Source: an uncultured Candidatus Rokubacteria bacterium
GTDB lineage: Bacteria > Methylomirabilota > Methylomirabilia > Rokubacteriales > CSP1-6
Direction of reading: 5' to 3'
Assembly (NCBI GenBank): GCA_963754315.1
Contig: CAVWFS010000019.1
Location: 849,640-913,639, forward strand
DNA length: 64,000 bases
Below are positions 8,478 through 49,740 of the stretch, in pieces (position 1 is the stretch's first letter; each line of letters begins with the position of its first letter). Below the pieces are notes generated by a model. It searched no databases and was not told the origin of the DNA. It saw only the letters and a list, made by a program, of their open reading frames with translations. The translations under genes and the position numbers were made by a program.

Positions 8478-9893
8478 GTGACACCGTTGCGGGTGATCGT
8501 TCTGGATGAACATCGCGAGGTGAGTGAGCGCGCGAAGCGCGTCCTGGGACGTTTGGGCGTACGCGTCTCCTTCGCCGGCTCTGTTGCCGAGCTCGATCTG
8601 CTGTTGGCCAAGAGCGTGCCCACGGATGTCCTCATCGCCAACCTTGCCGGGGAGGCCACGGCCTGGGAGCTCGCCGCCCAGCTTCGCTCTGTGCGTTTCC
8701 TCGGCAAGACGCTGATCCTCGTCGAACGGCCCGCCGAGGCTGACATGGTACGCTCGATGCGGGTTCCTCGGAGTGAATGCGTCATCCGCCCCGCTTCCGT
8801 AGGTCTTATCGATGATCTTCTTCAGCAGGTCGCAACGGACTCGCTCGAGCCGGTGTCAGAACGCTCCTTCGAGCCTCATCGCGCCCACGACCATGAAGCC
8901 TTCAACCACATCGAAGCCTTCAACCACATCGTTGGTCGATCGAAACCCATGCGCGAAATCTTCTGGCGCATCGAGAAGGTCGCCAACAGCGACGCCAACG
9001 TGTGCATCTACGGCGAGAGCGGTACGGGGAAGGAGCTCATCGCACGCGCTCTTCACCATGCGAGTGGGCGGCGCGATCGCCCCTTCATCGCTCTCGACTG
9101 CACGACGATCCCGGAGGGGCTGATGGAGAGCCACCTTTTCGGACACGTCAAGGGGGCGTTCACGGGGGCGGTCGACCACCGAGAGGGTGTTTTCTCCCTA
9201 GCCCACAGCGGCACGCTCTTCATGGACGAGCTTTGTGAACTGAGCCTGCCCCTCCAGGCAAAGCTTCTCCGCGTGGTTCAAAGCCGCGAGTTTGTAAAAG
9301 TGGGGGGGACCAAGCCCGTTCAGACCGACATCCGCCTAATCACCGCCACCAACAAGGAGCCGAAACAGGAAGTCGATCACGGCAACTTCAGGGAGGACCT
9401 CTACTATCGGTTGGCGGTAGTCATGATCAAGGTGCCTCCACTGCGGGAACGGAGCCATGATATTCCTCTCCTCGTGGAGCACTTCGTGAGGAAATTTGCC
9501 GCCGCCTACAATCGGCCCATTCGTGCGATCTCGCCAGCGGCCATGCGGCGCCTGGTCGCCTCACCGTGGCCGGGAAACGTCAGGCAGCTCGAGAATCTTC
9601 TCGAGCAGGCGGTGGTGCTGGCCGACGGGGAGACGCTCAATGAGTGCGATCTCTTCACCGAGGACCCGATCGAGGAGACATTAGCCCAGACGTCCTTTGT
9701 CAGTTTGGAGCGGGGGCTTCCTCTTCGCGAAGTCGAGCGACGGTATATCCTCCGAACGCTTCAAACCTGTCAGGACAACCGGACGGAGACAGCTCGTCGT
9801 CTCGGCATTAGCGTCAGGTGCCTTCAGTATAAATTGAAGTCCTACTCACTCGCGGACGGGGCGCCGCTCGTCGACGGTCGACAAGCGCGGTAG
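8478..9893 (+). CDS. sigma-54-dependent transcriptional regulator (bacterial enhancer-binding protein) with degenerate, probably non-phosphorylatable receiver domain
   Basis: AAA+ sigma-54 activation core (IVGRSKPMREIF...GESGTGKELIARALH...ESHLFGHVKGAFTGA...GNFREDLYYRL) and C-terminal Fis-type HTH (TETARRLGISVRCLQYKL). In the N-terminal receiver-like region the phospho-acceptor position reads 'DVLIANLAGE' (Asn where Asp is expected); T/K positions are also non-canonical. GTG start. Internal 6-aa tandem duplication 'HEAFNHIEAFNHI'. Confidence 0.85.
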   Translation: MTPLRVIVLDEHREVSERAKRVLGRLGVRVSFAGSVAELDLLLAKSVPTDVLIANLAGEATAWELAAQLRSVRFLGKTLILVERPAEADMVRSMRVPRSECVIRPASVGLIDDLLQQVATDSLEPVSERSFEPHRAHDHEAFNHIEAFNHIVGRSKPMREIFWRIEKVANSDANVCIYGESGTGKELIARALHHASGRRDRPFIALDCTTIPEGLMESHLFGHVKGAFTGAVDHREGVFSLAHSGTLFMDELCELSLPLQAKLLRVVQSREFVKVGGTKPVQTDIRLITATNKEPKQEVDHGNFREDLYYRLAVVMIKVPPLRERSHDIPLLVEHFVRKFAAAYNRPIRAISPAAMRRLVASPWPGNVRQLENLLEQAVVLADGETLNECDLFTEDPIEETLAQTSFVSLERGLPLREVERRYILRTLQTCQDNRTETARRLGISVRCLQYKLKSYSLADGAPLVDGRQAR

Positions 9894-12586: not shown

Positions 12587-12623
12587 GCAGCATCGCTCCG
12601 ATGCCGGCGGTCTCTATGCGCAC

Positions 12624-14111
12624 TCAAGGCGAGAAAGTCAGCTCAGCGACGCTCAGGGCAACGATGTCGCCGAGATCGACGGCATTGTCGTTCAGGCTCC
12701 CCGGGCGGATCAGCGCCGAGAACACGCGGTAGACACCGCTGGCGATGACCCCAGCCGGGGGGAAAATGTACTGAAAAAAGCTCGAGGCATCGAGCTGGAA
12801 GCCAGGGGGGACGACCTGCATCGGCGACAGAGAGGTTGGCGCCGACAGCGATCCCGTCCGCTCGAGGACGCCGTGGCCAGAGAACAGGACCAGCGTCTTT
12901 CGGTCAGGGAGCAGGGCACCGACGTAGAGGTCCAGGGCCGAGCTGGCGTCCGGATTGTGTACCGACAATCCGAGGCTTAGCGTCTGCCCTGAGCCGAACC
13001 GAGTTCCATTGAGCCAGACTCGCGTGTTGGCAAGTAGGGCGGCGCTCGGTCGCAACACATAGGCGTCCTCGTCGACGTCCGTCACCGTCACCAACAGACC
13101 AAAACCGGGCACATGGCCCAATCGACCGAACATACCATTCGGCGACGCGGCCCCGGGGCCGCCGGAAACCGTTGCCGACGACCACGAACGAGTCTCTGTG
13201 TCGAGGAAGTAAACGATGTCCCCGCCGCTCCAGACTATCATCCGATCGGTATCCGGGTCGTAGGCGAGGCCTGGCGACGTGTTGTTCGCGAGCAGAGGCG
13301 TGCCCGGCCACTTCTCGCGAATGAACGAGCTCCCTGGCCCGATGTCGTAGACTGACACGCCTCCGTTGTTGTCGTCTGGTCCTCCGATGATGACGAGCTT
13401 GCTCCTCACCGGATCCACGGCACTCGTCATGTGGTAGTCAATGAAATTGTCACTGGCCAGCCGATCGTAACTGTTGGTTTCGAAGGTGTACGCGTAGAGA
13501 TCCCGAGAGTCATGCAGATATACTTTCTTCGAGTTCGGGTCGTATGCGGCCACCACTCCGGCGTCGGGACCTGGTTGTGGACCCGACGGATCCATCCGCT
13601 GCCAGATAAGGGACGGGAAGTGGAACGTCCACGTGACACGACTGAAGTGCCCCGGGCCACAGGCGAGGCTTCCACCGTACACGAAGAGCCGGTCGGCATG
13701 GGCAATGTAGGCCATGCCACCGTAGCTGTGCCGGGAATTGGGCCGCCCGTCCGCCAGCGTCTCCTGGCAGTCGCGAGTACCAATCGGTAAATTAGGCGGG
13801 CTCGGGTCGGTCAAGCGCTGGATCGTCCGCGTGGCCAGATCCAGTGCGTACAGCTCGTTTCCTGCGTAGTCGTTATGGCCGCCGCCCCACATGATAAGGC
13901 GGTCTCGAGTCGAGTCCACCACCCCACCGTTCCAAGCTAGGATCACGTTCTTGCAGCGCCCAGCAAAGTCGTAGTCCGGTGTGGACGGCGGGCACACCGC
14001 TCGCATCTTCGTGTTGGGAATGGCTGTCCAGCCGGAAGGAAAATCCTGCGCGTTGGCCCGCGATGCTTGCGGGGGAAGCAACCAGGGCACCAGGAGCATC
14101 ACGGTGGCCAT
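12624..14111 (-). CDS. secreted Kelch-like beta-propeller protein (family A) with C-terminal ~120-aa 'D' domain; galactose-oxidase-like architecture
   Basis: Signal peptide (start taken at M27 'MATVMLLVPWLL'). Repeated blade-like motifs (ILAWNGG, WGGGHNDY, FVYGGSL, LVIIGG, MIVWSGG). Paralog of 41582..42724 and of the N-terminus of 44606..49180. C-terminal domain shared with 15249..16891. Confidence 0.7.
   Translation of the reverse strand: MATVMLLVPWLLPPQASRANAQDFPSGWTAIPNTKMRAVCPPSTPDYDFAGRCKNVILAWNGGVVDSTRDRLIMWGGGHNDYAGNELYALDLATRTIQRLTDPSPPNLPIGTRDCQETLADGRPNSRHSYGGMAYIAHADRLFVYGGSLACGPGHFSRVTWTFHFPSLIWQRMDPSGPQPGPDAGVVAAYDPNSKKVYLHDSRDLYAYTFETNSYDRLASDNFIDYHMTSAVDPVRSKLVIIGGPDDNNGGVSVYDIGPGSSFIREKWPGTPLLANNTSPGLAYDPDTDRMIVWSGGDIVYFLDTETRSWSSATVSGGPGAASPNGMFGRLGHVPGFGLLVTVTDVDEDAYVLRPSAALLANTRVWLNGTRFGSGQTLSLGLSVHNPDASSALDLYVGALLPDRKTLVLFSGHGVLERTGSLSAPTSLSPMQVVPPGFQLDASSFFQYIFPPAGVIASGVYRVFSALIRPGSLNDNAVDLGDIVALSVAELTFSP
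12627..12989. repeat. IR-D copy 1: ~360-bp segment encoding C-terminal 'D' domain, inverted repeat partner at 16526..16888 (~85-90% identity)
   Basis: Encoded peptides 'GQTLSLGLSVHNP...VVPPGFQLDASSFFQYIFPPAGV...ALSVAELTFSP' vs 'GQTLNLGLSVHNP...VVPPGFQLDAPSFFQYTFPPAGV...ALSVVELSFAP'. Antisense track ORFs 12492..12980(+) and 16574..16906(-) are also similar, which shows nucleotide-level similarity. Confidence 0.7.
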
Positions 14112-14220
14112 CAGCAGATACCGAATCAAGTGAGCGTCCCTCCACTTGTGTCGTGGACACCAGGGATCGTGTCCCCAGCAGTGGTGCACGAGCGGTGATT
14201 CGCGGAGGGCAGGTGCCCCT

Positions 14221-15109
14221 TCAGTTCAGCACGGCCGACAGCCACACGGACTGATTGTCGCTGAGCGCGTGCAGCCCTTCAAGCTGCATATATTGCCGCT
14301 GCAGCTGCCACTCGTCGTTCGGCTCGAGCAGCGGCCCCCACCAGCCGGATGATCGCCGCCTCGTTGGGGAAAATTCCCACCACGTCCGTCCGCTAGCTTG
14401 CAGCGCTCCAGCGGATTGGTGCGATCGAGCCATGCCTGGGACCAGCGTCAGCCCCCCTTAGGGGGAACTTCTCCCGCAGCTGGCCGCTCACCGCGCCATT
14501 GAGCGATGGCCGCTCCCTGGCTCTCCTGGGCGAACACCGTGTTGATCAAGGCCAGGACCATCTACCGCTGCCCCTTGCCCGCGTGGGCCAGGGCCTTGCG
14601 GATGAAGTGCACCCGACACCGCTGCCAGCTCGCCTTGAGCACCTTGGCCACGGCTGCCCTCAACCCCTCGTGGGCATGGGAAATCACCAGCTTGACGCCA
14701 CGCAACCCCCGCCGGGTCAGGCTGCGCAGGACGCTGGTCCAAAACGGCTCCGCTTCGCTCGGCCCCACCACCAGCCCCAGCACCTCTCGCACCCCGTCGG
14801 TGTTCACCGCCACCGACACGATGCGCCCCGCCTCCCGCACCTTCACGTAGGTCGCATCGATCCACAGGTACGGCCAATCCCGTCCAGGGGTCGGTTCACG
14901 AATGTCCCGACCCGCTCGTCAATCTGACTGCACAGCCGCGAGACTTGACTCTTCGAGATGCCGCTCATCCCCAGCGCGCGGACCACCTCATCCACCGAGC
15001 GCGCGTCGACACCCCCTGGATGTACGCCTCTTGGATCACCAGGCAACTGGTGTCTACCTCGCCCGGGCGGCGGTTGGCTGGACCGACTCAAGCAAGGCGG
15101 GCACATCAC
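14221..15109 (-). mobile_element. degraded IS256-family transposase gene (frameshifts, in-frame stop, N-terminus missing)
   Basis: Track ORFs 14843..15109(-) '...VVRALGMSGISKSQVSRLCSQIDERVGTFVNRPLDG' and 14562..14846(-) 'KVREAGRIVSVAVNTDGVREVLGLVVGPSEAEPFWTSVLRSLTRRGLRGVKLVISHAHEGLRAAVAKVLKASWQRCRVHFIRKAL' match conserved IS256/mutator-type transposase blocks but are in different frames. Further downstream 'MVLALINTVFAQESQGAAIAQW' follows an in-frame TAG. 14221..14433(-) carries 'LLEPNDEWQLQRQYMQLEGLHALSD' (IS256 C-terminus) in yet another frame. Confidence 0.75.
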
Positions 15110-15407
15110 GCTTGTGTATCATGCTCGTCGGCTATCGAGCGGTGCCAACTCTACGGCGAAACGTGAGCCAGTGGCTGGACCAGGCGCCCCGGCTCGTCGC
15201 CGTGCATAGGGCAGTCGATGTTGCCAGTGATCCGCTCACCCCTGACCCTTGACGGCTGACCGCACAGGGTCGATCCTGATGGTCAGTGGGCATGGGGCGC
15301 CATTTCGAAAGAAGCACGCGGTGATTCGAGGCCGTCAGGCTGCGCTCGAGCTTCTCCTGTTCACCCTCGCCATATCTCTGCTGGTAGGAACCGCTCAGGG
15401 GCACACG

Positions 15408-16468
15408 ACTCCGATCGACATTCCGAGTGGGGTCTTCATTGCGCTGGAGCGGCCGGACTGGGGCCGGGGGCCGGCGCGGGAGACGAAGCACTCGACGTAC
15501 GCGCACAACCCGATCGACGGGCGGCTGTACCAGATGGGGGGGACTTTGGGGGGACGGTGGGGGGGTCGTCGTACCGGCAGGACATGTACTCGGTGTCGAT
15601 TGCGGAGCGGTGGGCGAGCCGGAACGACCGGAACGCGGGCTGGCGGCAGGAGTACCCGTACTGTGGGCCGGAGGGAGGGCGGCAGCCGAAGTCGCCGGAC
15701 TATGTCGGGTGGACGTGGGACACCAAGCGGCGGGTGTTCTGGAGCGTGCCGGGCACGTTTGTAATCCCGGCGGCGGTGTGTCCAGGCATCACGGCGAGCT
15801 GGGGGGACGACCCCCCGAAGTATTTGTTCAACCACCTGATGACCTTTGATCCCTTCGAGCCGGACCTGACCCAGCGCTGGCAGGACCGGGGGCGCGACAT
15901 TGGGCCGACGGCCGTGGACACGTGGATGAGCGTGTACGACGCGGGGACCGACAGTCTGATTCGCTTCGGGTGGGACGGGGCGCGCGGGGCGATGGTGAAC
16001 ATCTATGACATTACGGCCGGGCAGTGGACGGCGAAGTTGCTGGGGTTGAACGCGGTGGGGCAGGACATCCGGATCTTTAAGGAGATGCTGGCGGCGGACT
16101 GGGGGCAGCGGGTGATTTATGTGATCGACGGGATTGCGGGGCGGCTGCATCGCTACCGGGTAGATGGGCGGACGATCGAGGACCTGGGGGTGGTGCCGGG
16201 GGGCCCGATCGCCTATGCGGCCAACAATGATGCCTACGCGGTGTGGGACAGCCTGCACCGGGTGCTGTTCTTTTTCCGGATGGACACGAGCATCCTGCAC
16301 GTCTATCACCCGGACACGCAGGAGTGGGAGACGCCACCGCTGGTGACAGATCCGCCGGGGCTGACGCCGCACGTGCGGCACGCGGCGGTGTTCGACCCGT
16401 ACCAGAACGTGCTGGTCCTCCTGGGGACGACGGACACGGCGAACCCCTACATGTACCTGTACCGCTAT
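15408..16468. repeat. IR-B copy 1: ~1.06-kb segment ~97% identical (inverted) to 46406..47470 inside the giant gene
   Basis: Encoded proteins identical over long stretches (e.g. 'DIGPTAVDTWMSVYDAGTDSLIRFGWDGARGAMVNIYDITAGQWTAKLLGLNAVGQDIRIFKEMLAADWGQRVIYVIDGIAGRLHRYRVDGRTIEDLG'). Antisense/alternate-frame track ORFs are also near-identical (16243..16482+ vs 46293..46631-; 15395..16558- vs 45554..47050+), which proves DNA-level identity. Confidence 0.85.
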
Positions 16469-16525
16469 GCGGAAGAAGGTAGGCCGAGCACCCGGCTCTC
16501 CCTCAGTGGAATCCAGTTCCATGCG

Positions 16526-16888
16526 GGCCAGACGTTGAATCTCGGACTGTCCGTCCACAATCCCAACGAGAACTCACCTCTCGAGCTTTACGTCGGCGCC
16601 GTGCTTCCGGACGGGAAGACCCTGGTTCTGTTCTCTGGCCCCGGCGTCCTCGAGCGGACGGGATCGCTGTCCGCACTCGCCTCCCTGTCGCCGATGCAGG
16701 TCGTTCCCCCTGGCTTTCAGCTCGATGCACCGAGCTTTTTCCAGTACACGTTCCCCCCCGCCGGGGTCACTGCGAGCGGTGTCTACCGTGTGTTCTCGGC
16801 GTTGATCCGCCCGGCAAGCCTGGACGACAATGCCGTCGATCCCGACGATATCGTCGCCCTGAGCGTGGTCGAACTGAGTTTCGCGCCG
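16526..16888. repeat. IR-D copy 2 (partner of 12627..12989)
   Basis: See IR-D copy 1. Confidence 0.7.
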
Positions 16889-18168
16889 TGAGCATGCGCT
16901 GCACAATCACCTCAATGAGGTCTACTGCCATCGGGATACGGCCAGCCGTCCTCGTCATCCTCGCGATCGTCTTGCAACCCCTCTCGGTCAGCGCCAAGGA
17001 GATCGGACCCGAAGCGGACTGGTGCCGCGAGGCGAATACCCTGCCAGCCGGCGCTGAGCTCCTGCTACGTCCAGGCGACTACCACGGCCCTTGCACGATT
17101 CGGCGCGGGGAGGGAGGCGCGGGAGGGCCGATCTCCATTCGCGCCAAGGATCCCGACCGGCCCGCCCGCATCGTGTACTCCGGCGGCAGCCACAACGTGC
17201 TGAATATCCGTCGCGACGACGTGACCATCCGCGGTCTCGAATTCGGGCCGACACTACAGGATGTCGACGGCATCCGGATCTACGACGGCAACAGGATTAC
17301 CATCGAGGACTGCCACTTCTCGCAGATGGGTGGTATTGCCGTTGTGGCGAATTATGCCAACGTTCGCGACCTCACCATTCGGCGAAACGCCATCCGGCAT
17401 TCGAAGTCGACGGCGATGTACTTCGGGTGCCATGACGGGATCTCGTGCACCGCCTCCGATCTCGCTATCGAGCACAACTTTATCGACGGCGTTGATACCG
17501 AGCATGGGATCGGCTACGGCATCCAGATCAAACTCAACTCAACGGCAACCATCCGCGACAACGTGATCGTCAACACCAAGGGACCCGGCATCATGGTCTA
17601 CGGAGCGGCCGACCCCTCCCGCGTCAGCCTGGTAGAGAGGAACCTTGTGGCGGGCTCGCGCACCTCGTCGGGTATCGTGGTCGGCGGCGGTCCGGCGGTG
17701 GTTCGCAATAACGTCGCTCTCGCCAACGCCGAAGTCGGGGTCGGGCTTGAGGACTATCGCCGACGGGGACTCCTTCAGGGGATTCTAGTTGCTCACAACA
17801 CGCTGTACGGGAACAGCAAGGGCGCGATCGGCGTGCCCGCCTCCGGTCGCCTCGAAGCCAAAGTGATCAACAACGCGGCGCACGCCAAGGTCGGGACTCG
17901 GTCGTTGCCGGCCGACCGATCGGGTTTGCTCGCCAGGGGCAATGTCGACTGTTCCCTTGCCCCATGCTTCGGCAATCCGGAGGGGATGGACTTCTCGCCT
18001 CATGCCACCTCACCGCTCTTGGGTCGGGGGCGCCCCGAGGCTGACCAGAGGATGCCCGTAGACGACTACTTGGGGCGGCGGCGCGGAGGGTTGCCCACGC
18101 CCGGCGCATTCGACGGCGCGGCGGAGCCCCTTGTCATCGGCATCCAGCCGGGCGAGCGCCCTCGATGA
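16888..18168 (+). CDS. secreted right-handed parallel beta-helix (pectin-lyase-fold) protein, putative polysaccharide lyase/hydrolase (family C)
   Basis: Signal peptide. Repetitive beta-helix rungs ('NVLNIRRDDVTIRGLEF', 'IRIYDGNRITIEDCHF', 'IAVVANYANVRDLTIRRNAI', 'GIQIKLNSTATIRDNVI', 'GIVVGGGPAVVRNNVA'). ~45-50% identical to the C-terminal 380 aa of 44606..49180. Start overlaps stop of upstream gene (translational coupling). Confidence 0.7.
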   Translation: MSMRCTITSMRSTAIGIRPAVLVILAIVLQPLSVSAKEIGPEADWCREANTLPAGAELLLRPGDYHGPCTIRRGEGGAGGPISIRAKDPDRPARIVYSGGSHNVLNIRRDDVTIRGLEFGPTLQDVDGIRIYDGNRITIEDCHFSQMGGIAVVANYANVRDLTIRRNAIRHSKSTAMYFGCHDGISCTASDLAIEHNFIDGVDTEHGIGYGIQIKLNSTATIRDNVIVNTKGPGIMVYGAADPSRVSLVERNLVAGSRTSSGIVVGGGPAVVRNNVALANAEVGVGLEDYRRRGLLQGILVAHNTLYGNSKGAIGVPASGRLEAKVINNAAHAKVGTRSLPADRSGLLARGNVDCSLAPCFGNPEGMDFSPHATSPLLGRGRPEADQRMPVDDYLGRRRGGLPTPGAFDGAAEPLVIGIQPGERPR

Positions 18169-18375: not shown

Positions 18376-18390
18376 AGTGGCACCTGTCTT
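18376..18390 (+). promoter_or_regulatory. sigma-54 (RpoN) -24/-12 promoter element, TGGCAC-N5-TTGC, immediately upstream of EPS priming transferase gene
   Basis: Read directly: 'aaagTGGCACctgtcTTGCgacta', an exact match to GG-N10-GC spacing and consensus. ~18 bp upstream of GTG start at 18408. Two sigma-54 activators are encoded in the locus. Confidence 0.55.
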
Positions 18391-18407
18391 GCGACTAACC
18401 CACTCTC

Positions 18408-19781
18408 GTGCTCAGAGTATTCGGACACTACTTACCGGCGATCGCAGTCGTCTCAATCCTGGGGGACCTGGTCACCCTGACCGCATCTGTCCTCCTTGCT
18501 TCACAATCCGCGGGATGGATCGGCACGGGGCCGCTCTGGCCTAAGGCCCTTGCCGTGTGCGGTATCACGGTCTTCAGCATCTATGTCACTGATCTCTATC
18601 GAACCGATTCACGTCTGAACAGGCGCGAGCTGGTCGCGCGGCTGGTGGTCGCTCTGCTCGCAAGCGCGCTGGTTATGGCCGCGCTTGGTTTTGCTGTCCC
18701 CGCCCTGCGTTTCAGCCGCTCTGCCTTTGTCCAGATCTTCAGCGCCTTCGCGATCGGCCTTGTTCCCTGGCGAATTGTCTTGCACCGGATCTGTCTGAAT
18801 GGTCGCCTGCACGCGCGCGTCCTCGTGCTCGGGCTCAGCCGCGCGGCCGGGCGACTCGTCGAGCTGCGGACGACCGGCTCGCAACCCTTCGTGATCCTCG
18901 GCTTCCTGGATGACGCTCCCGATGCCCATGACAAGCTGCCCGCGGGGACGGAGCTCCTCGGTAAGCCGCGGGATCTCCTGAATCTCGTCGACGAGCTACG
19001 GCCAGACCTCATCGTCGTCGCTCTCTCCGACATGCGGGGAGCATTGCCGACGAGTGATCTACTCGAATGCCGCCTGCGTGGAATTCGGGTTGAGGAGTGG
19101 CCGACATTTTTTGAGAAGCAGACGGGGAGGGTGCTGGTCACCGATCTCCGACCGAGCTGGCTCATATTCTCCGATGGCTTCGTTTCGATCCAGATCACGC
19201 AGACGTTGAAGAAGGTTCTGGATCTTACCCTCGCCCTCTCCCTTCTCGTCCTCACACTGCCCCTCATGCTGCTGGTGGCAGTCTCCATCAGGCTCGATTC
19301 CAAGGGGCCGATCCTATTCCGCCAGCCCCGGGTCGGTCACAACAGCCGCATCTTCATGATCAACAAGTTCCGTTCGATGCGAGACAACGCCGAACGTGAA
19401 TCGGGGGCCGTGTGGGCTACCGCCGGCGATCCTCGGGTGACCCGAGTCGGTCGCATCATCCGGCGGACGCGGCTCGATGAGCTGCCGCAGCTCTTCAACG
19501 TGCTCCTGGGAGAAATGAGCTTCGTGGGACCCCGCCCAGAGCGGCCCGAATTCGTGCGCACGCTTCACCGACAGATCCCTTTCTACTCAGGCCGGCTTGC
19601 CGTCAAGCCAGGCATCACCGGATGGGCCCAGGTCCGTCATCACTATGCGGCCTCGGTCGAGGATGCGATGGAAAAGCTTCAGTACGACCTCTACTACATC
19701 AAGAACCTGTCCCCCTTCTTGGACATTCTCATCCTCCTCAGCACGATTCAGGTCGTGCTCTTCGCGCGAGGAGCACGCTAA
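18408..19781 (+). CDS. exopolysaccharide biosynthesis polyprenyl glycosylphosphotransferase (bacterial sugar transferase; EpsB/WbaP-like, PEP-CTERM-system associated)
   Basis: Multiple N-terminal TM helices. C-terminal Bac_transf domain '[31 protein letters not shown]...[10 protein letters not shown]'. N-terminus '[10 protein letters not shown]' typical of this family. Confidence 0.85.
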
Positions 19782-41581: not shown

Positions 41582-42724
41582 ATGAACGCTACGAAGCGGT
41601 ACGGGCTGGCGGGCGCCCTTCTTTTTTCCCTCTTTCTTTCCCAAGTCCTTGCCCGAGGCGAGGAAGCTTCCTTCGGTGCCGGCTGGTCCCCGCTGCCCAA
41701 CACGTCGCTGCGGACGGTGTGTCCCCCGAACACAGCCCAGTATGGGTTCGCCGACCGGTGCCAGAACGTGATTCTGGCCTGGAATGGCGGCGTGATTGAC
41801 ACACGGCGCGGTCGCCTGATCGTGTGGGGAGGGGGGCACAACGATTACCGGGGCAACGAGATCTACGCGATCACCGTCAAGCCACCGAAAGTTGAGCGAC
41901 TGACAAACCCATCGCCCCCGAATGTGCCCCTCAACACCACCAACTGCACGACCACGCTGGCGGACGGGACGCCCAACTCGCGGCATACGTACGGCGGTCT
42001 GGCCTACATCGAACACGTCGACCGCATGTTCGTCTACGGGGGAAGCCTGGGCTGCAGCCCTGGCCACTTCGGCGGTGATACCTGGACGTTCAGCTTTGCC
42101 ACCAACACGTGGCAGGCCATGAGGCCGTCGGGCCCACAGCCGCGCTACGACGCCGGCATTGTCGCCGCCTACGATCCCAACACCCGGAAGGTCTTCCTGC
42201 ACGACGCCTGGGATCTCTTCGCCTACACGTTCGAGACCAACAGCTACCAGCGGCTGGCCACCGGCAATCACATCGACTACCACATGACGGCGGCGGTGGA
42301 TCCTATACGCAAAAAACTCATCATCGTAGGGGGAACGGCCGGCAGCGGCGGCGGGGTCACCGTCTACGATATCGGAGCGCGAAGTGGATTCGGGCGGCAA
42401 CAGTGGACAACAACCGGCGGAGATCGAATCGTGCACACCGCATCGCCGGGGCTCGCGTACGATCCTGACTCCGACCGGATGGTGGCGTGGGCCGGCGGGG
42501 ATACGTTGCACAGCCTGAATATGGATACCCGAATGTGGACTGCGCACAGATTTTCGGGGGGACCGGATACTGCGCCAGAGAACGGAATGTTCGGGCGGTG
42601 GGGTTATTTGGCGCAGTACGGAGTGTTTGTCACGGTCACGAGCGTGGACCGTAATGCCTATGTTTTGCGCTTAACCAACGCACCACGCACGGACGACCCA
42701 GCGCCGGCTGGCGGTTCACGTTGA
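41582..42724 (+). CDS. secreted Kelch-like beta-propeller protein (family A paralog, no D domain)
   Basis: Signal peptide 'MNATKRYGLAGALLFSLFLSQVLA'. Residues 62-265 are 100% identical to residues 96-299 of the giant protein 44606..49180; flanks diverge. Confidence 0.75.
   Translation: MNATKRYGLAGALLFSLFLSQVLARGEEASFGAGWSPLPNTSLRTVCPPNTAQYGFADRCQNVILAWNGGVIDTRRGRLIVWGGGHNDYRGNEIYAITVKPPKVERLTNPSPPNVPLNTTNCTTTLADGTPNSRHTYGGLAYIEHVDRMFVYGGSLGCSPGHFGGDTWTFSFATNTWQAMRPSGPQPRYDAGIVAAYDPNTRKVFLHDAWDLFAYTFETNSYQRLATGNHIDYHMTAAVDPIRKKLIIVGGTAGSGGGVTVYDIGARSGFGRQQWTTTGGDRIVHTASPGLAYDPDSDRMVAWAGGDTLHSLNMDTRMWTAHRFSGGPDTAPENGMFGRWGYLAQYGVFVTVTSVDRNAYVLRLTNAPRTDDPAPAGGSR
41765..42376. repeat. IR-A copy 1: ~610-bp segment essentially identical (inverted) to 48389..49000
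   Basis: Main-frame proteins are identical. Alternate-frame track ORFs are identical too (41922..42122+ = 48643..48843-, 66 aa each; 42109..42468+ vs 48309..48656- identical for ~89 aa then diverge), which demonstrates nucleotide identity. Confidence 0.85.
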
Positions 42725-42763
42725 GCCGATCTTGCCGGAGACGAGCGAAAAGGAGTTAGGGTC

Positions 42764-43255
42764 ATGTATATGTATCCCCTTCGCGCCGCGAGCGCAATTG
42801 TGGTCCTTGCCGCTACTGTACTCGCACTGCCCTTCCACGCGGTAGCGGCCCCGCCTCAATCCGCGCTCAGCAGCACGATCAGCACGAACCCAATCATCAT
42901 CGGCAGTCAGCTACGCGAGGCCCTTCGCCTGGCCGGGATCGCTCTCCAACAGCTGGACCGACTCGCTCCCGAAGACTCGCTCGACCAGGCTGCTGCCACC
43001 TGTCGCGAGGTGTATGTCCTCATCCGGGCAGCCCGGAGCGGGATGATCAACGCCAAGGCAAAGGCCCGGTTCCCCGACCCGCTTCTCGACTGGGAAATCG
43101 AGCGCACGACGATCGCCTGGAATGAGTCCCGACGCCCGGTGGAAGATGCGAACGGCACCCTCAGCTACAATAAACCTGAGTACGTCCGTGCGGCCACGGA
43201 ACACCTGAATATTGCGGTGGCCAACATCGAACTCGTGCTTCAGGTCCTGCCCTGA
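42764..43255 (+). CDS. small secreted hypothetical protein (signal peptide + ~135-aa alpha-helical-looking domain), lower GC than surroundings
   Basis: 'MYMYPLRAASAIVVLAATVLALPFHAVAAPP' signal. No recognisable motif. Occupies the position between family A and B genes that the IS256 remnant occupies in the other block. Confidence 0.45.
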   Translation: MYMYPLRAASAIVVLAATVLALPFHAVAAPPQSALSSTISTNPIIIGSQLREALRLAGIALQQLDRLAPEDSLDQAAATCREVYVLIRAARSGMINAKAKARFPDPLLDWEIERTTIAWNESRRPVEDANGTLSYNKPEYVRAATEHLNIAVANIELVLQVLP

Positions 43256-43321
43256 CCCCGCCGGGGATGTGACCGTGCCCGCCCATGCCTCGGTTGTGAC
43301 AAAACCCGACAGAGTTGGCGC

Positions 43322-44509
43322 ATGAGGAGGCACGCTCGTTCCCTGCTGTTCGGGGGTCTGTTGCTCGGCAGCCTTATGATAGCGGTCGCGCGGATCGAAG
43401 GTGAGAGTGCTTCGCCGCCCGCATCATTCGTTCTCCCGAAGCCGATCGACATTCCGAACGGGCTGTTCGTGGCACTGGAGCGGCCAGACATCGGTCGGGG
43501 GGTGGCGGGTGAAACAAAGCACGTCACCTGGGCCCACAACCCTGTGGACGGGCGGCTGTACCAGATGGGGGGGGATTTCAGCGGGCCGGTGGGGGGGTCC
43601 TCGTACCGGCAAGACATGTACTCGGTGTCGATTGCGGAGCGGTGGGCGAGCCGGAACGACCGGAACGCGGGCTGGCGGCAGGAGTACCCGTACTGTGGGC
43701 CGGAGGGGGGGCGGCAGCCGAAGTCGCCCGACTATGTGGGGTGGACGTGGGACACGAAGCGGCGAGTGTTCTGGAACGTGCCGGGCACGTTTGTGATCCC
43801 GGCAGCGGTGGTGTGCCCGGGCGTCACGTCCAGTTGGGCGGACGATCCGCCGAAGTATCTCTTCAACCACCTGATGACCTTCGATCCGTTCGAGCCGGAT
43901 CTGACGAAGCGCTGGAAGGACGTGGGGACCAACATTGGGCCGACCCCGGTGGACACGTGGATGAGCGTGTACGACGCAGGGACCGATAGTCTCGTTCGTT
44001 TCGGGTGGGATGGCGGCCGCGGGGCGATGGTGAACGTCTACGACATCGCGAAGGGCCGGTGGGCGGAGAAGCCCCTCGGACGGAATGCTCTCGGGCAGGA
44101 CATCCGGATCTGGAAGGAGATGCTGGCGCCGGACTGGGGGCAGCGAGTGATCTACGCGATCGATGGGCTCGCGGGGCGGCTGCATCGCTACCAGGTGGAC
44201 GGGCGGACGATCGAGGACTTGGGGGCGGTGCCGGGGGGCCCGATCGCCTATGCGGCCAACAATGATGCCTACGCGGTGTGGGATAGTCTGCACCGAGTGC
44301 TGTTCTTTTTCCGGATGGACACGAGCATGCTGCACGTCTATCACCCGACTCGAAAGACCTGGGAGACCCCGCCGATGGCCACCGATCCCCCAGCGCTCAA
44401 ACCCCACGTCCGCCACGGGTTGGTGTTCGACTCATATCAGAACGTGCTAGTATTTCTCGGAACCACTGATACGTCGAATCTATATCTATACTTGTATCGC
44501 TACCGCTGA
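43322..44509 (+). CDS. secreted propeller-like protein (family B paralog, intact, no D domain)
   Basis: Signal peptide 'MRRHARSLLFGGLLLGSLMIAVA'. Shares 'PIDIPNGLFVALERPD...SSYRQDMYSVSIAERWASRNDRNAGWRQEYPYCGPEGGRQPKSPDYVGWTWD...' with 15249..16891 and the giant protein. Strand-like motifs (RLYQMGG, RVFWNVPG, VIYAIDG, VLFFFRMD, VLVFLGT) suggest a propeller. Confidence 0.7.
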   Translation: MRRHARSLLFGGLLLGSLMIAVARIEGESASPPASFVLPKPIDIPNGLFVALERPDIGRGVAGETKHVTWAHNPVDGRLYQMGGDFSGPVGGSSYRQDMYSVSIAERWASRNDRNAGWRQEYPYCGPEGGRQPKSPDYVGWTWDTKRRVFWNVPGTFVIPAAVVCPGVTSSWADDPPKYLFNHLMTFDPFEPDLTKRWKDVGTNIGPTPVDTWMSVYDAGTDSLVRFGWDGGRGAMVNVYDIAKGRWAEKPLGRNALGQDIRIWKEMLAPDWGQRVIYAIDGLAGRLHRYQVDGRTIEDLGAVPGGPIAYAANNDAYAVWDSLHRVLFFFRMDTSMLHVYHPTRKTWETPPMATDPPALKPHVRHGLVFDSYQNVLVFLGTTDTSNLYLYLYRYR

Positions 44510-44605
44510 CTGCCTCGGTCAGCCCCCCGCGGGCGAGCGTCGCCTCAGCCTGGAGTCGCGTCTCGGATCAGGATGTCAGCCAGTGTACCTGCTCGAGGCT
44601 GAAGA

Positions 44606-47600
44606 TCACTCGTGCAGTTCGAAGGCACCAACATCGGCGGCTCCGCTGCGCGGAACGTCCACGAAGTCATCGGCAGGTCGCCAGGGCTCAGGCCCGCTCC
44701 CCGCCGCGTCGATCAACGGACTGTTCGGAGCTGGCCAGAGGACGTAGGGCGGCGGCGGCATGGCTTGAACAAAGCACCCCGTCGTCGGTCCGCATGTGAT
44801 GTTCCCCAGGATGGTGCCGGCCGGCGAGCTCGGCCAGAGATCCGGAGTCCCCACCAGGGGCCGAATGGCGTTGAAGGCGATGACGTTGCCGCTCTGGTTG
44901 CCCCACCCCGCTACATTGATGCCGGAGTCGCTGTTGTCGAGTACCGTGTTGTGCACAATCCACACGTTCTTCTGCAAATTTCGACGCCCATAGTTCTGGG
45001 CGCTGATCCCCCCGAAGGCATTTCCGACTAAAACATTGTTCCACACGATGGCGGGGCCGCCCCCTACCACGATCCCGCCTTCCTCCAGCGACCCCTCCAC
45101 GTAATTCTTCTCGATAACACTGGGCGGATCGCCTCGGTTGGAGCCGTACACCATGATACCTGGTCCCTTCGTTCGGGAAATTGTGTTGCCCCGCACCGTG
45201 CCGTAGGAGTTCAGCTTGATCTGTAGGCCGTACCCGATGCCGTTCGAGGTGACCCCGTTGATCACGTTGTTCTCGACGAGCAGCTCCGTCACGTGACAAC
45301 TCGTGCCGTCGTGGCACCCGAAGTACAGCCCAGTCTGATTCAAGTCCTTGAAGAGGTTCTCGCGCACCGTGAGTCGGTGGCTATCCTGCGTGTTGGCACT
45401 GATGGCAATGCCCCCGATACCCTCGAATGTGTTCCGTTCGATCACGATATCGTGGGCGCTCCAGATCCTGATGGCATCCACGTCCTCCTGAGTCGGTGCA
45501 AACGCAAAACCCCGAATGTACAGATACCCCGCGCCCCGGAGCTCTAGGACGTTATGATTCGATCCCGCGTAGGCGAAGGTCGCCCGCGAGGAGTTTCCCT
45601 CGTCCTGAGATCGCATCACGATTGGCGCCGCCGCCGTGCCCACCGCCGTGATCCAACACGGACTGGTGTAGGAGCCGGCCACGAAGACGATCTCGGTACC
45701 GGGCTGCGCCTTGTTGAGGATGTTGCACCATGGATCCGCCGCGCCAACCTTGATTGTCGTGCCCGACTGAGCGATCGTGGCACTCGCCGTGTTGGAGTAC
45801 GGACCGAGATTGGCGGCCGCATCGGTGGCCCGCACCCGGTAGCTGTAGCTGGTGCCCGCCGTACGCCCCGTGTCACTGTAGACGGTCCCGCTCGGCGTGG
45901 CCACCTGAGCGAAACTGCTGCAGCCCGCGCCCTGGCACCGCTCCACCAGGTAACCCGTCACCTCAACGTTGTCCGTGGCCGCCGTCCAGCTGAGGTTGAT
46001 CTCGCTGGCGCTGGCCACCGTGGCGCCCAGGTTCGTGGGCGCCGTAGGCGTCATCGTGTCAGCGATCGTGGGCGCCGTGGGCGTCGTCGTGTCAGCGATC
46101 GTGGCACTCGCCGTGTTGGAGTACGGACCGAGATTGGCGGCCGCATCGATGGCCCGCACCCGGTAGCTGTAGCTGGTGCCCGCCGTACGCCCCGTGTCAC
46201 TGTAGATGGTCCCGCTCGGCGTGGCCACCTGAGCGAAACTGCTGCAGCCCGTGCCCTCGCACCGCTCCACCCGGTAACCCGTCACCCCAACGTTATCCGT
46301 GGCCGCCGTCCAGCTGAGGTTGATCTCGCTGGCGCTGGCCACCGTGGCGCCCAGGTTCGTGGGCGCCGTGGGCGTCGTGGTATCTCCCGTTCCGAAAGAC
46401 GGCCTGTAGCGGTAGAAGTACATGTAGGGGTTCGCCGTGTCCGTCGTCCCCAGGAGGACCAGCACGTTCTGGTCCGGGTCGAACACCGCCGCGTGCCGCA
46501 CGTGCGGCGTCAGCCCCGGCGGATCCGTCACCAGCGGTGGTGTCTCCCACTCCTGCGTGTCCGGGTGATAGACGTGCAGGATGCTCGTGTCCATCCGGAA
46601 AAAGAACAGCACCCGGTGCAGGCTGTCCCACACCGCGTAGGCATCATTGTTGGCCGTATAGGCGATCGGGCCCCCCGGCACCGCCCCCAGGTCCTCGATC
46701 GTCCGCCCGTCCACCCGGTAGCGATGCAGCCGCCCCGCAATCCCGTCGATCACATAAATCACCCGCTGCCCCCAGTCCGCCGCCAGCATCTCCTTAAAGA
46801 TCCGGATGTCCTGCCCCACCGCGTTCAACCCCAGCAACTTCGCCGTCCACTGCCCGGCCGTAATGTCATAGATGTTCACCATCGCCCCGCGCGCCCCGTC
46901 CCACCCGAAGCGAATCAGACTGTCGGTCCCCGCGTCGTACACGCTCATCCACGTGTCCACGGCCGTCGGCCCAATGTCGCGCCCCCGGTCCTGCCAGCGC
47001 TGGGTCAGGTCCGGCTCGAAGGGATCAAAGGTCATCAGGTGATTAAATAGGTACTTCGGCGGATCGTCCGCCCAACTGGACGTGATGCCCGGGCAGACCA
47101 CCGCTGCCGGGATCACAAACGTGCCCGGCACGCTCCAGAACACCCGCCGCTTGCTGTCCCACGTCCACCCCACATAGTCCGGCGATTTCGGCTGCCGGCC
47201 CCCCTCCGGCCCACAGTACGGGTACTCCTGCCGCCAGCCCGCGTTCCGGTCGTTCCGGCTCGCCCACCGCTCCGCAATCGACACCGAGTACATGTCCTGC
47301 CGGTACGACGACCCCCCCACCGTCCCCCCAAAGTCGCCCCCCATCTGGTACAGCCGCCCGTCGATCGGGTTGTGCGCGTACGTCGAGTGCTTCGTCTCCC
47401 GCGCCGGCCCCCGGCCCCAGTCCGGCCGCTCCAGCGCTATGAAGACCCCACTTGGAATGTCGATCGGGGTCCCCGGGCGCAGTGGCGGCGGAGCGCTGTT
47501 CGACACGGTCACCAGGCGGGCGGCCGCCGTGGCGCTGTTTCCGGCCGCGTCGCGGGCTACCGCCGTGAGCGTGTGCATCCCATCGCCCTCTGCCGTCGTG

Positions 47601-49180
47601 TCCCACACCACCGCGTAAGGTCCGATCGTCGTCTCTGCCCCCAGATTGGCGCCGTCAAGCTTGAACTGCACTCCCACCACGTTATCGGACGCGGACGCCG
47701 TCACTGTCACCGTCCCCGCGACGGTTGCCCCCGCTGCCGGCGCGCTCAACGTCACCGTCGGGTTGGTGGCATCGGTCGGTGACGCCCCGTTTCCGACGGT
47801 GACTGTGCGGGCGGCCGCCGTGGCGCTGTTTCCAGTGGCATCGCGGGCCACCGCTGTGAGGGTGTGCGCGCCATTGGCCGCTGTCGTCGTATCCCATGCG
47901 ACCGAGTACGGGTGGGTCGTTGCCTCTGTCCCCAGATTGACGCCATCGAGTTTGAACTGGACTCCCACCACGGAGACGTCATCCGACGCGGACGCCGCCA
48001 CCGTCACCGTCCCCGCGACGATCTCGCCTGCGGCCGGCGCGCTGAGCGTCACCGTCAGGTTTGTGGGGTCGGTCGGTGGCCGGTCTGGCGAAGGTTGAAG
48101 CGAAAGGGCGTACGCATCGAGGTCTACGCTCGTCACTGCAACGAACACGCCCGGCCCAGGCACGTAGCCCCACCGGCCGAAAGTCCCGTTCTCCGGCGCC
48201 GCGCCCGGCCCGCCGGTCAACGTCTGCGTCGTCCACGTCTGCGTGTCGGTATTCAAGCTGTAGACGGTGTCCTCCCCAGCCCATACCACCATCCGATCCG
48301 ATCCGGGATCATAACTGATGCCGGGAGACAAGGCGTTGACCACTCCTGGGCCCCCGGTCCACCTCTGCGCCATGTACGCGCTCCCTGGCCCGATGTCGTA
48401 GACGGTGACTCCGCCGCCGCTGCCGGCCGTTCCCCCTACGATGATGAGTTTTTTGCGTATAGGATCCACCGCCGCCGTCATGTGGTAGTCGATGTGATTG
48501 CCGGTGGCCAGCCGCTGGTAGCTGTTGGTCTCGAACGTGTAGGCGAAGAGATCCCAGGCGTCGTGCAGGAAGACCTTCCGGGTGTTGGGATCGTAGGCGG
48601 CGACAATGCCGGCGTCGTAGCGCGGCTGTGGGCCCGACGGCCTCATGGCCTGCCACGTGTTGGTGGCAAAGCTGAACGTCCAGGTATCACCGCCGAAGTG
48701 GCCAGGGCTGCAGCCCAGGCTTCCCCCGTAGACGAACATGCGGTCGACGTGTTCGATGTAGGCCAGACCGCCGTACGTATGCCGCGAGTTGGGCGTCCCG
48801 TCCGCCAGCGTGGTCGTGCAGTTGGTGGTGTTGAGGGGCACATTCGGGGGCGATGGGTTTGTCAGTCGCTCAACTTTCGGTGGCTTGACGGTGATCGCGT
48901 AGATCTCGTTGCCCCGGTAATCGTTGTGCCCCCCTCCCCACACGATCAGGCGACCGCGCCGTGTGTCAATCACGCCGCCATTCCAGGCCAGAATCACGTT
49001 CTTGCAGTAATCCGCGAAAGCGTACTCCGGTGTGTTCGGAGGGCACACCGTCCTCAGTCTCGTATTGGTCATCTCAGTCCAGCCGGCCGGAAAGCTCTGC
49101 GCGTCTGCTTGTCCGACCAGCAGCGCCACCGCCCATGAGATTTGGCAGAGTACAAACAGCAGACGAACAACTTTCGGCAT
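44606..49180 (-). CDS. giant secreted multidomain protein: family A propeller - 2x Ig-like - family B domain - 2x fibronectin type III - right-handed beta-helix (putative surface polysaccharide-active enzyme)
   Basis: Start at M36 (MPKVVRLLFVLCQ...) with GGAGG 7 nt upstream. Two ~90-aa repeats 'TVTLSAPAAG..VAGTVTV.ASASD...VQFKLDG.NLG....PY.V.WDTT....HTLTAVARDA.GNSATAAAR.VTV'. Two FN3-like repeats 'PTAPTNLGATVASASEINLSWTAATDNV.VTGY.VERC.G.GCSSFAQVATPSGT.YSDTGRTAGTSYSYRVRA.DAAANLGPYSNTASATI'. C-terminal beta-helix rungs paralogous to 16888..18168. Confidence 0.8.
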   Translation of the reverse strand: MPKVVRLLFVLCQISWAVALLVGQADAQSFPAGWTEMTNTRLRTVCPPNTPEYAFADYCKNVILAWNGGVIDTRRGRLIVWGGGHNDYRGNEIYAITVKPPKVERLTNPSPPNVPLNTTNCTTTLADGTPNSRHTYGGLAYIEHVDRMFVYGGSLGCSPGHFGGDTWTFSFATNTWQAMRPSGPQPRYDAGIVAAYDPNTRKVFLHDAWDLFAYTFETNSYQRLATGNHIDYHMTAAVDPIRKKLIIVGGTAGSGGGVTVYDIGPGSAYMAQRWTGGPGVVNALSPGISYDPGSDRMVVWAGEDTVYSLNTDTQTWTTQTLTGGPGAAPENGTFGRWGYVPGPGVFVAVTSVDLDAYALSLQPSPDRPPTDPTNLTVTLSAPAAGEIVAGTVTVAASASDDVSVVGVQFKLDGVNLGTEATTHPYSVAWDTTTAANGAHTLTAVARDATGNSATAAARTVTVGNGASPTDATNPTVTLSAPAAGATVAGTVTVTASASDNVVGVQFKLDGANLGAETTIGPYAVVWDTTAEGDGMHTLTAVARDAAGNSATAAARLVTVSNSAPPPLRPGTPIDIPSGVFIALERPDWGRGPARETKHSTYAHNPIDGRLYQMGGDFGGTVGGSSYRQDMYSVSIAERWASRNDRNAGWRQEYPYCGPEGGRQPKSPDYVGWTWDSKRRVFWSVPGTFVIPAAVVCPGITSSWADDPPKYLFNHLMTFDPFEPDLTQRWQDRGRDIGPTAVDTWMSVYDAGTDSLIRFGWDGARGAMVNIYDITAGQWTAKLLGLNAVGQDIRIFKEMLAADWGQRVIYVIDGIAGRLHRYRVDGRTIEDLGAVPGGPIAYTANNDAYAVWDSLHRVLFFFRMDTSILHVYHPDTQEWETPPLVTDPPGLTPHVRHAAVFDPDQNVLVLLGTTDTANPYMYFYRYRPSFGTGDTTTPTAPTNLGATVASASEINLSWTAATDNVGVTGYRVERCEGTGCSSFAQVATPSGTIYSDTGRTAGTSYSYRVRAIDAAANLGPYSNTASATIADTTTPTAPTIADTMTPTAPTNLGATVASASEINLSWTAATDNVEVTGYLVERCQGAGCSSFAQVATPSGTVYSDTGRTAGTSYSYRVRATDAAANLGPYSNTASATIAQSGTTIKVGAADPWCNILNKAQPGTEIVFVAGSYTSPCWITAVGTAAAPIVMRSQDEGNSSRATFAYAGSNHNVLELRGAGYLYIRGFAFAPTQEDVDAIRIWSAHDIVIERNTFEGIGGIAISANTQDSHRLTVRENLFKDLNQTGLYFGCHDGTSCHVTELLVENNVINGVTSNGIGYGLQIKLNSYGTVRGNTISRTKGPGIMVYGSNRGDPPSVIEKNYVEGSLEEGGIVVGGGPAIVWNNVLVGNAFGGISAQNYGRRNLQKNVWIVHNTVLDNSDSGINVAGWGNQSGNVIAFNAIRPLVGTPDLWPSSPAGTILGNITCGPTTGCFVQAMPPPPYVLWPAPNSPLIDAAGSGPEPWRPADDFVDVPRSGAADVGAFELHE
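46406..47470. repeat. IR-B copy 2 (inverted partner of 15408..16468)
   Basis: See IR-B copy 1. Confidence 0.85.
48389..49000. repeat. IR-A copy 2 (inverted partner of 41765..42376)
   Basis: See IR-A copy 1. Confidence 0.85.
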
Positions 49181-49740
49181 TCGTGAACCTCCGTTCAGGA
49201 CGGGCGTCCGACCATGCCGCTCAGCATGTGCAAATCCCGTCGATGCTCGTGGTCGAGACTCTCTGGCAATTCGCATACCGATCAAGGCCCCGAGCAGAAT
49301 GCATGGGTTCGCGTGACACTTCGGCGTGATTCAGTGACAGACTGGCGCGGCAACGATCGGACTTCGACAAAACAGTCGGCGAGAGTTCTTCTCGGGAGAC
49401 CCGCGAGTGGTTTGCTGCTCTGACTGCGAGCGGTCTGTGGAGCCCGACATGCCCAGAAAGCAGTCGGCCTGCTAGGAAATAGGGCAATCCGAGAGTCTGG
49501 CCGGGAGACTACCCTGCTCGCGATCCGTGTCTTGGGACCGCTGGCGAAACAGGTTGATGCCGCCGCGACCACGAACCTCTCGGCCGCCCGGCTACGTACG
49601 CTTCACGTGATCGGCGGTGATCCTATCGGTTGTGGTGGTCTACTCCCTCCTTGTGTCGGTCACCCTCGCGGCGGCCGCAGCGCGCAGCAGTCAGGGCCGG
49701 CGCCTCGTGTCGCGCACTCGCCCCGCCTTGCCGGGTGGGC

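Follow-up and report, generated by a model that had tools for sequence, protein, structure and literature searches.

A 592-nt perfect inverted repeat in two convergent propeller genes of an uncultured Rokubacteria bacterium: a probable gene conversion tract in an exopolysaccharide locus

The genome of an uncultured Candidatus Rokubacteria bacterium (assembly GCA_963754315.1) carries two convergent genes for secreted propeller proteins, named A and G here, which hold the two arms of an inverted repeat without a single mismatch. Both genes lie in a stretch of contig CAVWFS010000019.1 (positions 849,640 to 913,639), and this whole stretch of 64,000 nucleotides (nt), or 64 kilobases (kb), is referred to as the window. 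Does such a repeat denote a switch that exchanges protein ends by DNA inversion, as was first proposed for this locus, or is it the trace of a past exchange between paralogs? Our analysis favors the second answer: the 592-bp repeat is most probably a very recent, non-reciprocal gene conversion tract, with gene A as the donor and the first domain of gene G (G1) as the recipient (probability roughly 0.78). The genes and repeat arms concerned are as follows.

Gene A, 41582..42724, plus strand: 380 amino acids (aa), a secreted six-bladed Kelch-type propeller; its start lies 29 nt past the stop codon of prsR
Gene B, 42764..43255, plus strand: 163 aa with a signal-peptide-like N-terminus and without family match; conserved in the syntenic relative L001
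Gene C, 43322..44509, plus strand: 395 aa, a secreted propeller of a second type; no significant Pfam match
Gene G, 44606..49180, minus strand: 1524 aa from the ATG at 49180, with a GGAGG Shine-Dalgarno sequence; secreted
Perfect arm 1, 41763..42354, plus strand: in gene A, codons 62-257, roughly propeller blades 1-4; the conversion tract
Perfect arm 2, 48411..49002, minus strand: in domain 1 of gene G (G1); the likely recipient copy

A perfect repeat within two diverged genes

Base-by-base comparison shows that 41763-42354 on the plus strand is the reverse complement of 48411-49002 over 592 nt with zero mismatches, and that mismatches at 41762 and 42355 delimit this tract. The tract is embedded in an ungapped arm pair of 731 nt (41678-42408 and 48357-49087) with 94% identity in the repeat finder, past which identity in the ungapped register drops to about 30%. 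The original prediction had described a near-identical inverted repeat inside two convergent propeller genes, ascribed it to recent recombination or gene conversion and not to an old duplication, and named a blastn comparison of the two regions as a check. These claims hold: blastn gives 96-97.5% identity across 668-698 nt, and a zero-difference core stands between strongly diverged flanks. The length of about 610 bp given for nearly 100% DNA identity applies to the proteins, which are identical over A residues 62-265, eight codons beyond the DNA tract by way of synonymous differences; the identical DNA itself measures 592 nt.

Outside the tract, the two propellers share 60% aa identity, with a synonymous divergence (dS) of 1.2 in the 5' flank and of 4.1, a saturated value, in the 3' flank (ratio of nonsynonymous to synonymous divergence, dN/dS, 0.07-0.28). 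The 196 core codons inside the tract show zero differences and a dS of 0. By our own arithmetic, 592 straight matches at the flank identity of about 0.6-0.7 per base have P < 1e-90, and the longest inverted repeat expected by chance in 64 kb is about 16 nt. The identity between A and G1 cannot be explained by chance.

Some other sources of identity were considered and rejected. Purifying selection is ruled out by the zero synonymous changes in the tract against saturated flanks. Two successive inversions would exchange sequence between the copies, not render them identical. A diversity-generating retroelement was dismissed as well, with a repeat free of mismatches and no reverse transcriptase domain in the scanned open reading frames (ORFs).

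The propeller assignment is based on both families and models. Gene A matches Kelch-repeat families in a profile search, and its AlphaFold2 model (predicted local distance difference test score, pLDDT, 88.2) is a six-bladed Kelch-like propeller whose best PDB matches are Kelch domains. The model of C (pLDDT 89.4) also displays a six-bladed Kelch-like fold. Fold searches with the A and C models returned generic Kelch propellers only, PDB sequence searches with A, C and the beta-helix of G found no close relative with a solved structure, and the NCBIfam scan left A and C without a match. The ORF of gene G comprises 1559 codons (44606-49285, minus strand) and is convergent to A-B-C; its true start is most likely the ATG at 49180, and a 1524-aa product is on record for the 925,744-nt contig. 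Its domains are, in order, a signal peptide, an A-type propeller (G1), two Big_7 domains, a C-type propeller (G2), two fn3 domains and a right-handed beta-helix of NosD-like type.

Direction, age and recurrence of the exchange

The sole syntenic relative of the locus is L001 (ENA ERZ1761150), a forest soil contig of 10,288 nt which is collinear with the window from 34.5 to 45.2 kb at about 88% identity and carries PrsR-A-B-C together with the tail of G. In it, the A head is joined to the A tail, B, C and the G tail in the parental arrangement. A second point of comparison is given by A4 (P0002); together with C4 (P0241) it forms a fourth propeller pair, located outside the window on the 925,744-nt contig, and both were compared as proteins.

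Compared with A of the window, the A gene of L001 (A_L001) has a nucleotide identity of 82% in the 5' flank, 87.8% in the tract and 88.4% in the 3' flank. Its identity to the flanks of G1 is only 42-55%. At the protein level it is 92% identical to the tract. The C-terminal flank of the G1 protein is nearest to A4 (76%, against 61% to A); within the tract, G1 is 100% identical to A, and A4 reaches 74%. The two parts of the gene are thereby incongruent, with the tract grouping A with G1 and the flanks grouping A with A_L001 and G1 with A4. The tract has A-type ancestry. Since it is as close to A_L001 as the flanks of A are, and since the flanks of G1 are nearest to A4, A-type sequence was written into G. 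G1 likely held a core of the G/A4 type originally, which would then have been overwritten from A. Judged against this one outgroup, A itself is unchanged (87.8% to A_L001 in the tract and 82-88% in the flanks) and both copies are now A-type, as in a non-reciprocal transfer. Because A and A_L001 differ by a dS of 0.42-0.52, a dS of 0 in the A/G1 tract makes the event much younger than the split from L001. The testable hallmarks of interparalog gene conversion, namely an identity tract with diverged flanks, phylogenetic incongruence and non-reciprocity, are all found here.

The genome holds at least four A-type and at least four C-type propeller copies in or near its XrtA/PEP-CTERM locus, and A and G1 are old paralogs in this multi-copy family of secreted Kelch-type propellers. 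Further members and associated elements in the window are listed below.

Nested inverted-repeat arm in gene C, 43442..44503, plus strand: paralogous to G2
G2, 46406..47471, minus strand: C-type propeller domain of G; a mosaic, C2/C4-like with a C-like patch at about 47142-47050
Gene C2, 15249..16891, plus strand: third C-type copy, with an extra C-terminal domain of about 130 aa; frame broken
Gene A3, 12624..14189, minus strand: third A-type copy, about 57-60% aa identity to A and G1; identical to P0003
IS256/Mutator-family transposase remnant, 14565-15118, minus strand: PF00872, E=2.7e-32 and 2.9e-08; frameshifted fragments
Tandem fn3-encoding repeats in G, 45770-46060 and 46094-46384, minus strand: 96-97% identical to each other

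C and G2 form a nested inverted repeat (43442-44503 against 47467-46406), of 906 nt at 88% identity in the repeat finder and 1065 nt at 85.4% in the self-comparison, with a dS of 0.48. A closer pair is made of C2 (15407-16467) and G2, which are inverted and 30 kb apart and display 96.6% identity over 1065 nt (dS 0.11), including a perfect tract of 329 nt. C4 shows about 99% protein identity to G2 and retains a relic of the second Big_7 domain of G. A tract of about 98 nt, at 43613-43710 in C, is identical in all three C-type copies of the window (C, C2 and G2). In a longest-run permutation, every paralog pair gave P<2e-4, and the ortholog control, C against the C gene of L001 (C_L001), gave P=0.86. 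Moreover, G2 at 46710-46810 and the C gene of L001 share 101 perfectly matching nt in genes otherwise about 85% identical, which suggests that conversion among C-type copies happened in the L001 lineage too. The copies of this family keep exchanging patches, and the C-type copies are mosaics.

Several other features of these copies were observed. Relative to G2, C2 lacks one nt in a run of G near 15542, which disrupts its reading frame, and the public gene call P0243 starts downstream; either C2 is a genuine pseudogene or the homopolymer was misread in sequencing. A3 and C2, which are divergent and separated by the decayed insertion sequence, belong to different propeller types and end in a common domain of about 130 aa without Pfam match, whose copies at 12623-12989 (minus strand) and 16525-16892 (plus strand) are inverted and 83% identical in nucleotides. 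The A4/C4 pair likewise possesses a common tail, ...PPPAPESLRVF. These C-terminal tags, each specific to one pair, may point to a co-localisation of the pair members or to further exchange of 3' ends. Within G, the two Big_7 units (47486-47718 and 47777-48009) are 74-80% identical to each other, and the homogenisation or duplication of the fn3 pair looks as recent as the propeller tracts.

Gene conversion and its alternatives

The contiguous tract, its sharp ends where homology drops, the unchanged donor and the recurrence of such tracts regardless of orientation and distance point to ectopic gene conversion. The likely route is the homology-directed repair of a break, with sequence of gene A replacing its counterpart in G1. 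We infer double-strand-break repair with RecA as the mechanism, and likewise the absence of a switching function. The identity tracts of C/G2, C2/G2 (30 kb apart) and C4/G2, found whatever the orientation or distance of the copies, argue for generic homologous repair, and the inverted orientation of the A/G1 repeat is due to A-B-C and G being convergent, mirror-ordered paralogous modules.

A well-known counterpart is the tufA/tufB gene pair of Salmonella enterica, whose concerted evolution by RecA-dependent gene conversion was reportedly found by Abdulkarim and Hughes in 1996. In Salmonella, recA-dependent conversion keeps these inverted genes alike; more than 96% of the events leave a contiguous tract, the processivity per nucleotide is about 0.998, and tracts usually span several hundred nt at most (Paulsson et al. 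2017, PMC5485169). The A/G1 pair resembles them in being inversely oriented paralogs on one chromosome with contiguous, non-reciprocal tracts of a few hundred nt and homogenisation bounded by divergence, and in both cases the same repeats are able to mediate inversion too. However, the tuf genes are 762 kb apart and near-identical over their full length, continuously so, whereas A and G1 are old paralogs with 60% aa identity which lie 6 kb apart in an exopolysaccharide locus and were converted in a patch only, giving a chimeric propeller.

Several points weigh against the conversion of G1 from A as described. The direction rests on one outgroup contig, L001, which is without a G N-terminus of its own, and on one paralog compared only as a protein (A4), and an earlier conversion of the L001 A gene by a G-type copy could cause it to be misread. 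Short-read polishing, if it evened out near-identical copies, may have led to a slight overstatement of the perfect identity. An ongoing inversion polymorphism, as a function layered on conversion, may also exist. The DNA that such an inversion involves is the following.

Segment invertible by crossover between the perfect arms, 42355..48410, no strand: 6056 nt with A tail, B, C and G body

As a by-product of conversion, the repeat would now be a good substrate for RecA-type crossing-over that flips 42355-48410. That recombination would invert about 6 kb had been foreseen correctly, and both ORFs stay open when the inversion is made in silico, one of 1525 aa (A head and G body) and one of 379 aa (G head and A tail, then B and C). 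The expected exchange of 5' ends is correct in that heads and upstream regions swap; the proteins would hardly change, as the recombinant giant would depart from G in just 37 positions at its N-terminus, about half of which belong to the signal peptide, and no cassette diversity is created. The only real consequence of inversion would be the upstream swap, between the read-through position of A behind prsR and the 560-nt upstream region of G. Occasional RecA-mediated inversion is physically likely, and nothing indicates that flipping is programmed or selected. Assemblies built from k-mers are blind to the orientation, with the junctions inside the perfect repeat.

Of the readings that compete with conversion, the one that survives best, though we consider it unlikely, takes the segment as a RecA-dependent invertible regulatory switch, in which selection keeps the repeat perfect and the gene bodies lie inside the invertible DNA, with a logic like that of the sap locus. 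After a flip, the giant G would be read from the end of the xrt-prsR operon and A tail, B and C from the upstream region of G, or the reverse. If this were true, the repeat would be maintained and the segment flipped by general recombination at an appreciable rate, giving two subpopulations: one with the split set A-B-C behind the exosortase/PrsR operon and the fused G behind its own promoter, and the other with these exchanged. The improbable result would be a bistable switch without recombinase, built like the sap design in mirror image, which re-wires how a propeller/beta-helix module associated with the exopolysaccharide is expressed.

The geometry works, with both products in frame, and the 5' contexts differ, A starting 29 nt after prsR and G having 560 nt of upstream DNA with its own Shine-Dalgarno sequence. 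A perfect repeat of 592 nt at a separation of 6 kb is an efficient recombination substrate. The sap system is said, in the work of Dworkin and Blaser and of Tu et al. in 2003, to have an invertible element of about 6 kb, conserved 5' regions of about 600 bp and recA dependence. A precedent exists in Campylobacter fetus sap, where recombination exchanges the S-layer gene homologs that stand behind one promoter (PMC3887049). Like sap, the A/G locus has several hundred bp of inverted homology in opposed paralogous genes for secreted or surface proteins, around some 6 kb of DNA (6056 nt, flanked by arms of 592 nt), and a flip through general recombination would join each head to the other body without loss of frame. 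In sap, however, the promoter lies within the invertible DNA between divergent genes, and one homolog out of several with antigenically distinct bodies is expressed. A and G are convergent, each with its own start codon and upstream DNA in place of one promoter and silent alternative homologs, the swap would alter no more than 37 residues at the N-terminus, and variants in orientation are not on record.

These nearly unchanged proteins speak against a switch, as does the lack of promoter asymmetry in the scans upstream of A and G. Promoter and terminator scans upstream of A, upstream of G and between C and G returned nothing usable, with no sigma-70-like or sigma-54-like site before A or G. 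Other paralog pairs possess similar tracts where inversion would be without such an effect or would turn round a 30-kb stretch of biosynthesis genes. The repeat is also younger than the split from the nearest relative and not a conserved feature as far as visible. The comparison with a related genome that was suggested as a check speaks against the switch, as the orientation in L001, the sole syntenic relative, matches that of the window. In more distant relatives, A, C and the beta-helix gene are each present as a single copy, and repeats are absent. A scan of the genome collection with G found only the distant L002 (64% identity, in the beta-helix only, no repeats), and the protein-based metagenome scan only the distant loci L003-L008, without inverted repeats. 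The search with the whole G protein returned an excess of Big_7 repeat proteins and no G ortholog, and in the metagenome scan a 32-mer of the tract had no exact match.

Conversion from G to A, or the overwriting of both copies by a common third donor, is still less probable than a switch. Such a reading draws on the single outgroup used in the direction test and on the further copies A4 and C4 outside the window. It conflicts with the similarity of the tract to A_L001 (92% in aa and 87.8% in nucleotides), which is the same as in the unconverted flanks of A, and with the other known A-type copies, A3 and A4, being only 67-74% identical to the tract.

We regard an assembly or polishing artefact, be it a collapsed repeat, a hairpin chimera or the consensus homogenisation of two similar copies, as very unlikely. 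The source is a 925,744-nt contig of an uncultured genome, and the 1-nt deletion in the G homopolymer of C2 is possibly a sequencing error, both of which count in its favor. However, the locus is interior to this contig, which is no palindrome as a whole, the arms diverge sharply past the tract, and each gene is one long open frame. Copies as divergent as the flanks show would not be homogenised by mis-mapped reads, and L001, from another sample, is collinear through A-B-C into the G tail. There is no N anywhere in the window. A further argument comes from an independent short-read contig of Logan with gene B (run ERR11571139; 1250 nt), which maps to 42325-43574 of the window. Logan uses k=31, and if the repeat boundary is real, a de Bruijn unitig coming from the unique 3' flank of A must stop at 42325. 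The left end of the contig falls exactly on this predicted break, 30 nt (k-1) inside the tract end at 42354. Its right end at 43574 lies about 68 nt before the in-window repeat prediction of 43642, which may reflect C4 or strain variation.

Site-specific cassette switching of the shufflon or invertase type, put forward in the original prediction along with antigenic variation, has practically nothing left to recommend it beyond the fact that two convergent genes contain an inverted repeat. Pfam and NCBIfam scans of the flanking genes and of the large ORFs throughout the 64-kb window detected no recombinase gene of the invertase or integrase families. In addition, the repeat is 592 nt of coding sequence and not a pair of short crossover sites (about 10-40 bp), there are two "cassettes" only, whose exchanged parts are nearly the same and create no diversity, similar tracts occur family-wide, and L001 shows the parental linkage. 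The shufflons and invertase switches (Rci, Hin/Gin, fim, Bacteroides invertons) resemble the locus in having inverted repeats in or near genes for surface or secreted proteins, and protein ends exchangeable by inversion. Unlike A/G, they possess a dedicated recombinase, short repeats and often several cassettes. The transposase remnant at 14565-15118, 27 kb from the repeat, is the only mobile-element trace.

The locus and its propeller/beta-helix triad

According to the Pfam and NCBIfam scans, the 64-kb window is an XrtA/PEP-CTERM exopolysaccharide locus. It encodes a priming sugar transferase, a Wzz-like/ATPase protein, a polysaccharide export protein and a Wzy-like polymerase, together with deacetylases, GNAT/FemAB-like proteins, glycosyltransferases, three amidotransferases of the asparagine-synthase type, PrsK, an exosortase and the PEP-CTERM-box regulator PrsR. 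The sigma-54 consensus has 29 matches window-wide against 24 expected, which is not above chance. One site, TGGCACCTGTCTTGCG at 18378-18393 (plus strand), differs by one mismatch from the sigma-54 -24/-12 consensus and lies 15 nt before the priming sugar-transferase gene (18408-19781). With window-wide matches not above chance, its position is consistent with a biosynthesis operon controlled by the sigma-54 activators of the window (8478-9893 and PrsR).

An A-type propeller, a C-type propeller and a beta-helix protein are found adjacent and in that order beside exosortase/EpsI/PrsK genes in distant contigs (L009 6603-10679, a JGI 3300056388 contig, and L002-L004). The window has this triad twice. 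One set consists of the separate genes A3, C2 and H2 (12624-18168), where the following gene completes the triad at 12.6-18.2 kb, and the other is fused in the same order in G (44606-49180).

Gene H2, 16888..18168, plus strand: stand-alone beta-helix/NosD-like protein; 41.5% aa identity to the C-terminal domain of G

The domain order of G corresponds to three separate exosortase-adjacent genes, an operon-to-fusion relationship of the "Rosetta stone" kind, which concerns the identity of the proteins and not the repeat. Gene order and fusion together suggest that XrtA/PEP-CTERM exopolysaccharide loci contain an uncharacterised module of three parts that may act together.

The A/G1 repeat is a real, very clean and mechanistically ordinary gene conversion tract. 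It presents a case of natural ectopic gene conversion in an uncultured soil bacterium, of which the direction, relative age and boundaries are readable from sequence, and in which four of the six propeller blades proved swappable between paralogs of 60% identity with the frame intact. Near-identical inverted repeats inside paralogs are no evidence of programmed switching. Such repeats break short-read assemblies at predictable points, and they make local inversions likely, so that the gene order here is not to be assumed fixed. The triad of A-type propeller, C-type propeller and beta-helix next to the exosortase, with its fusion into the 1524-aa G, is the more original by-product of this study and may prove more useful. 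The fusion offers a testable clue that the three proteins would act together on the PEP-CTERM-associated exopolysaccharide.

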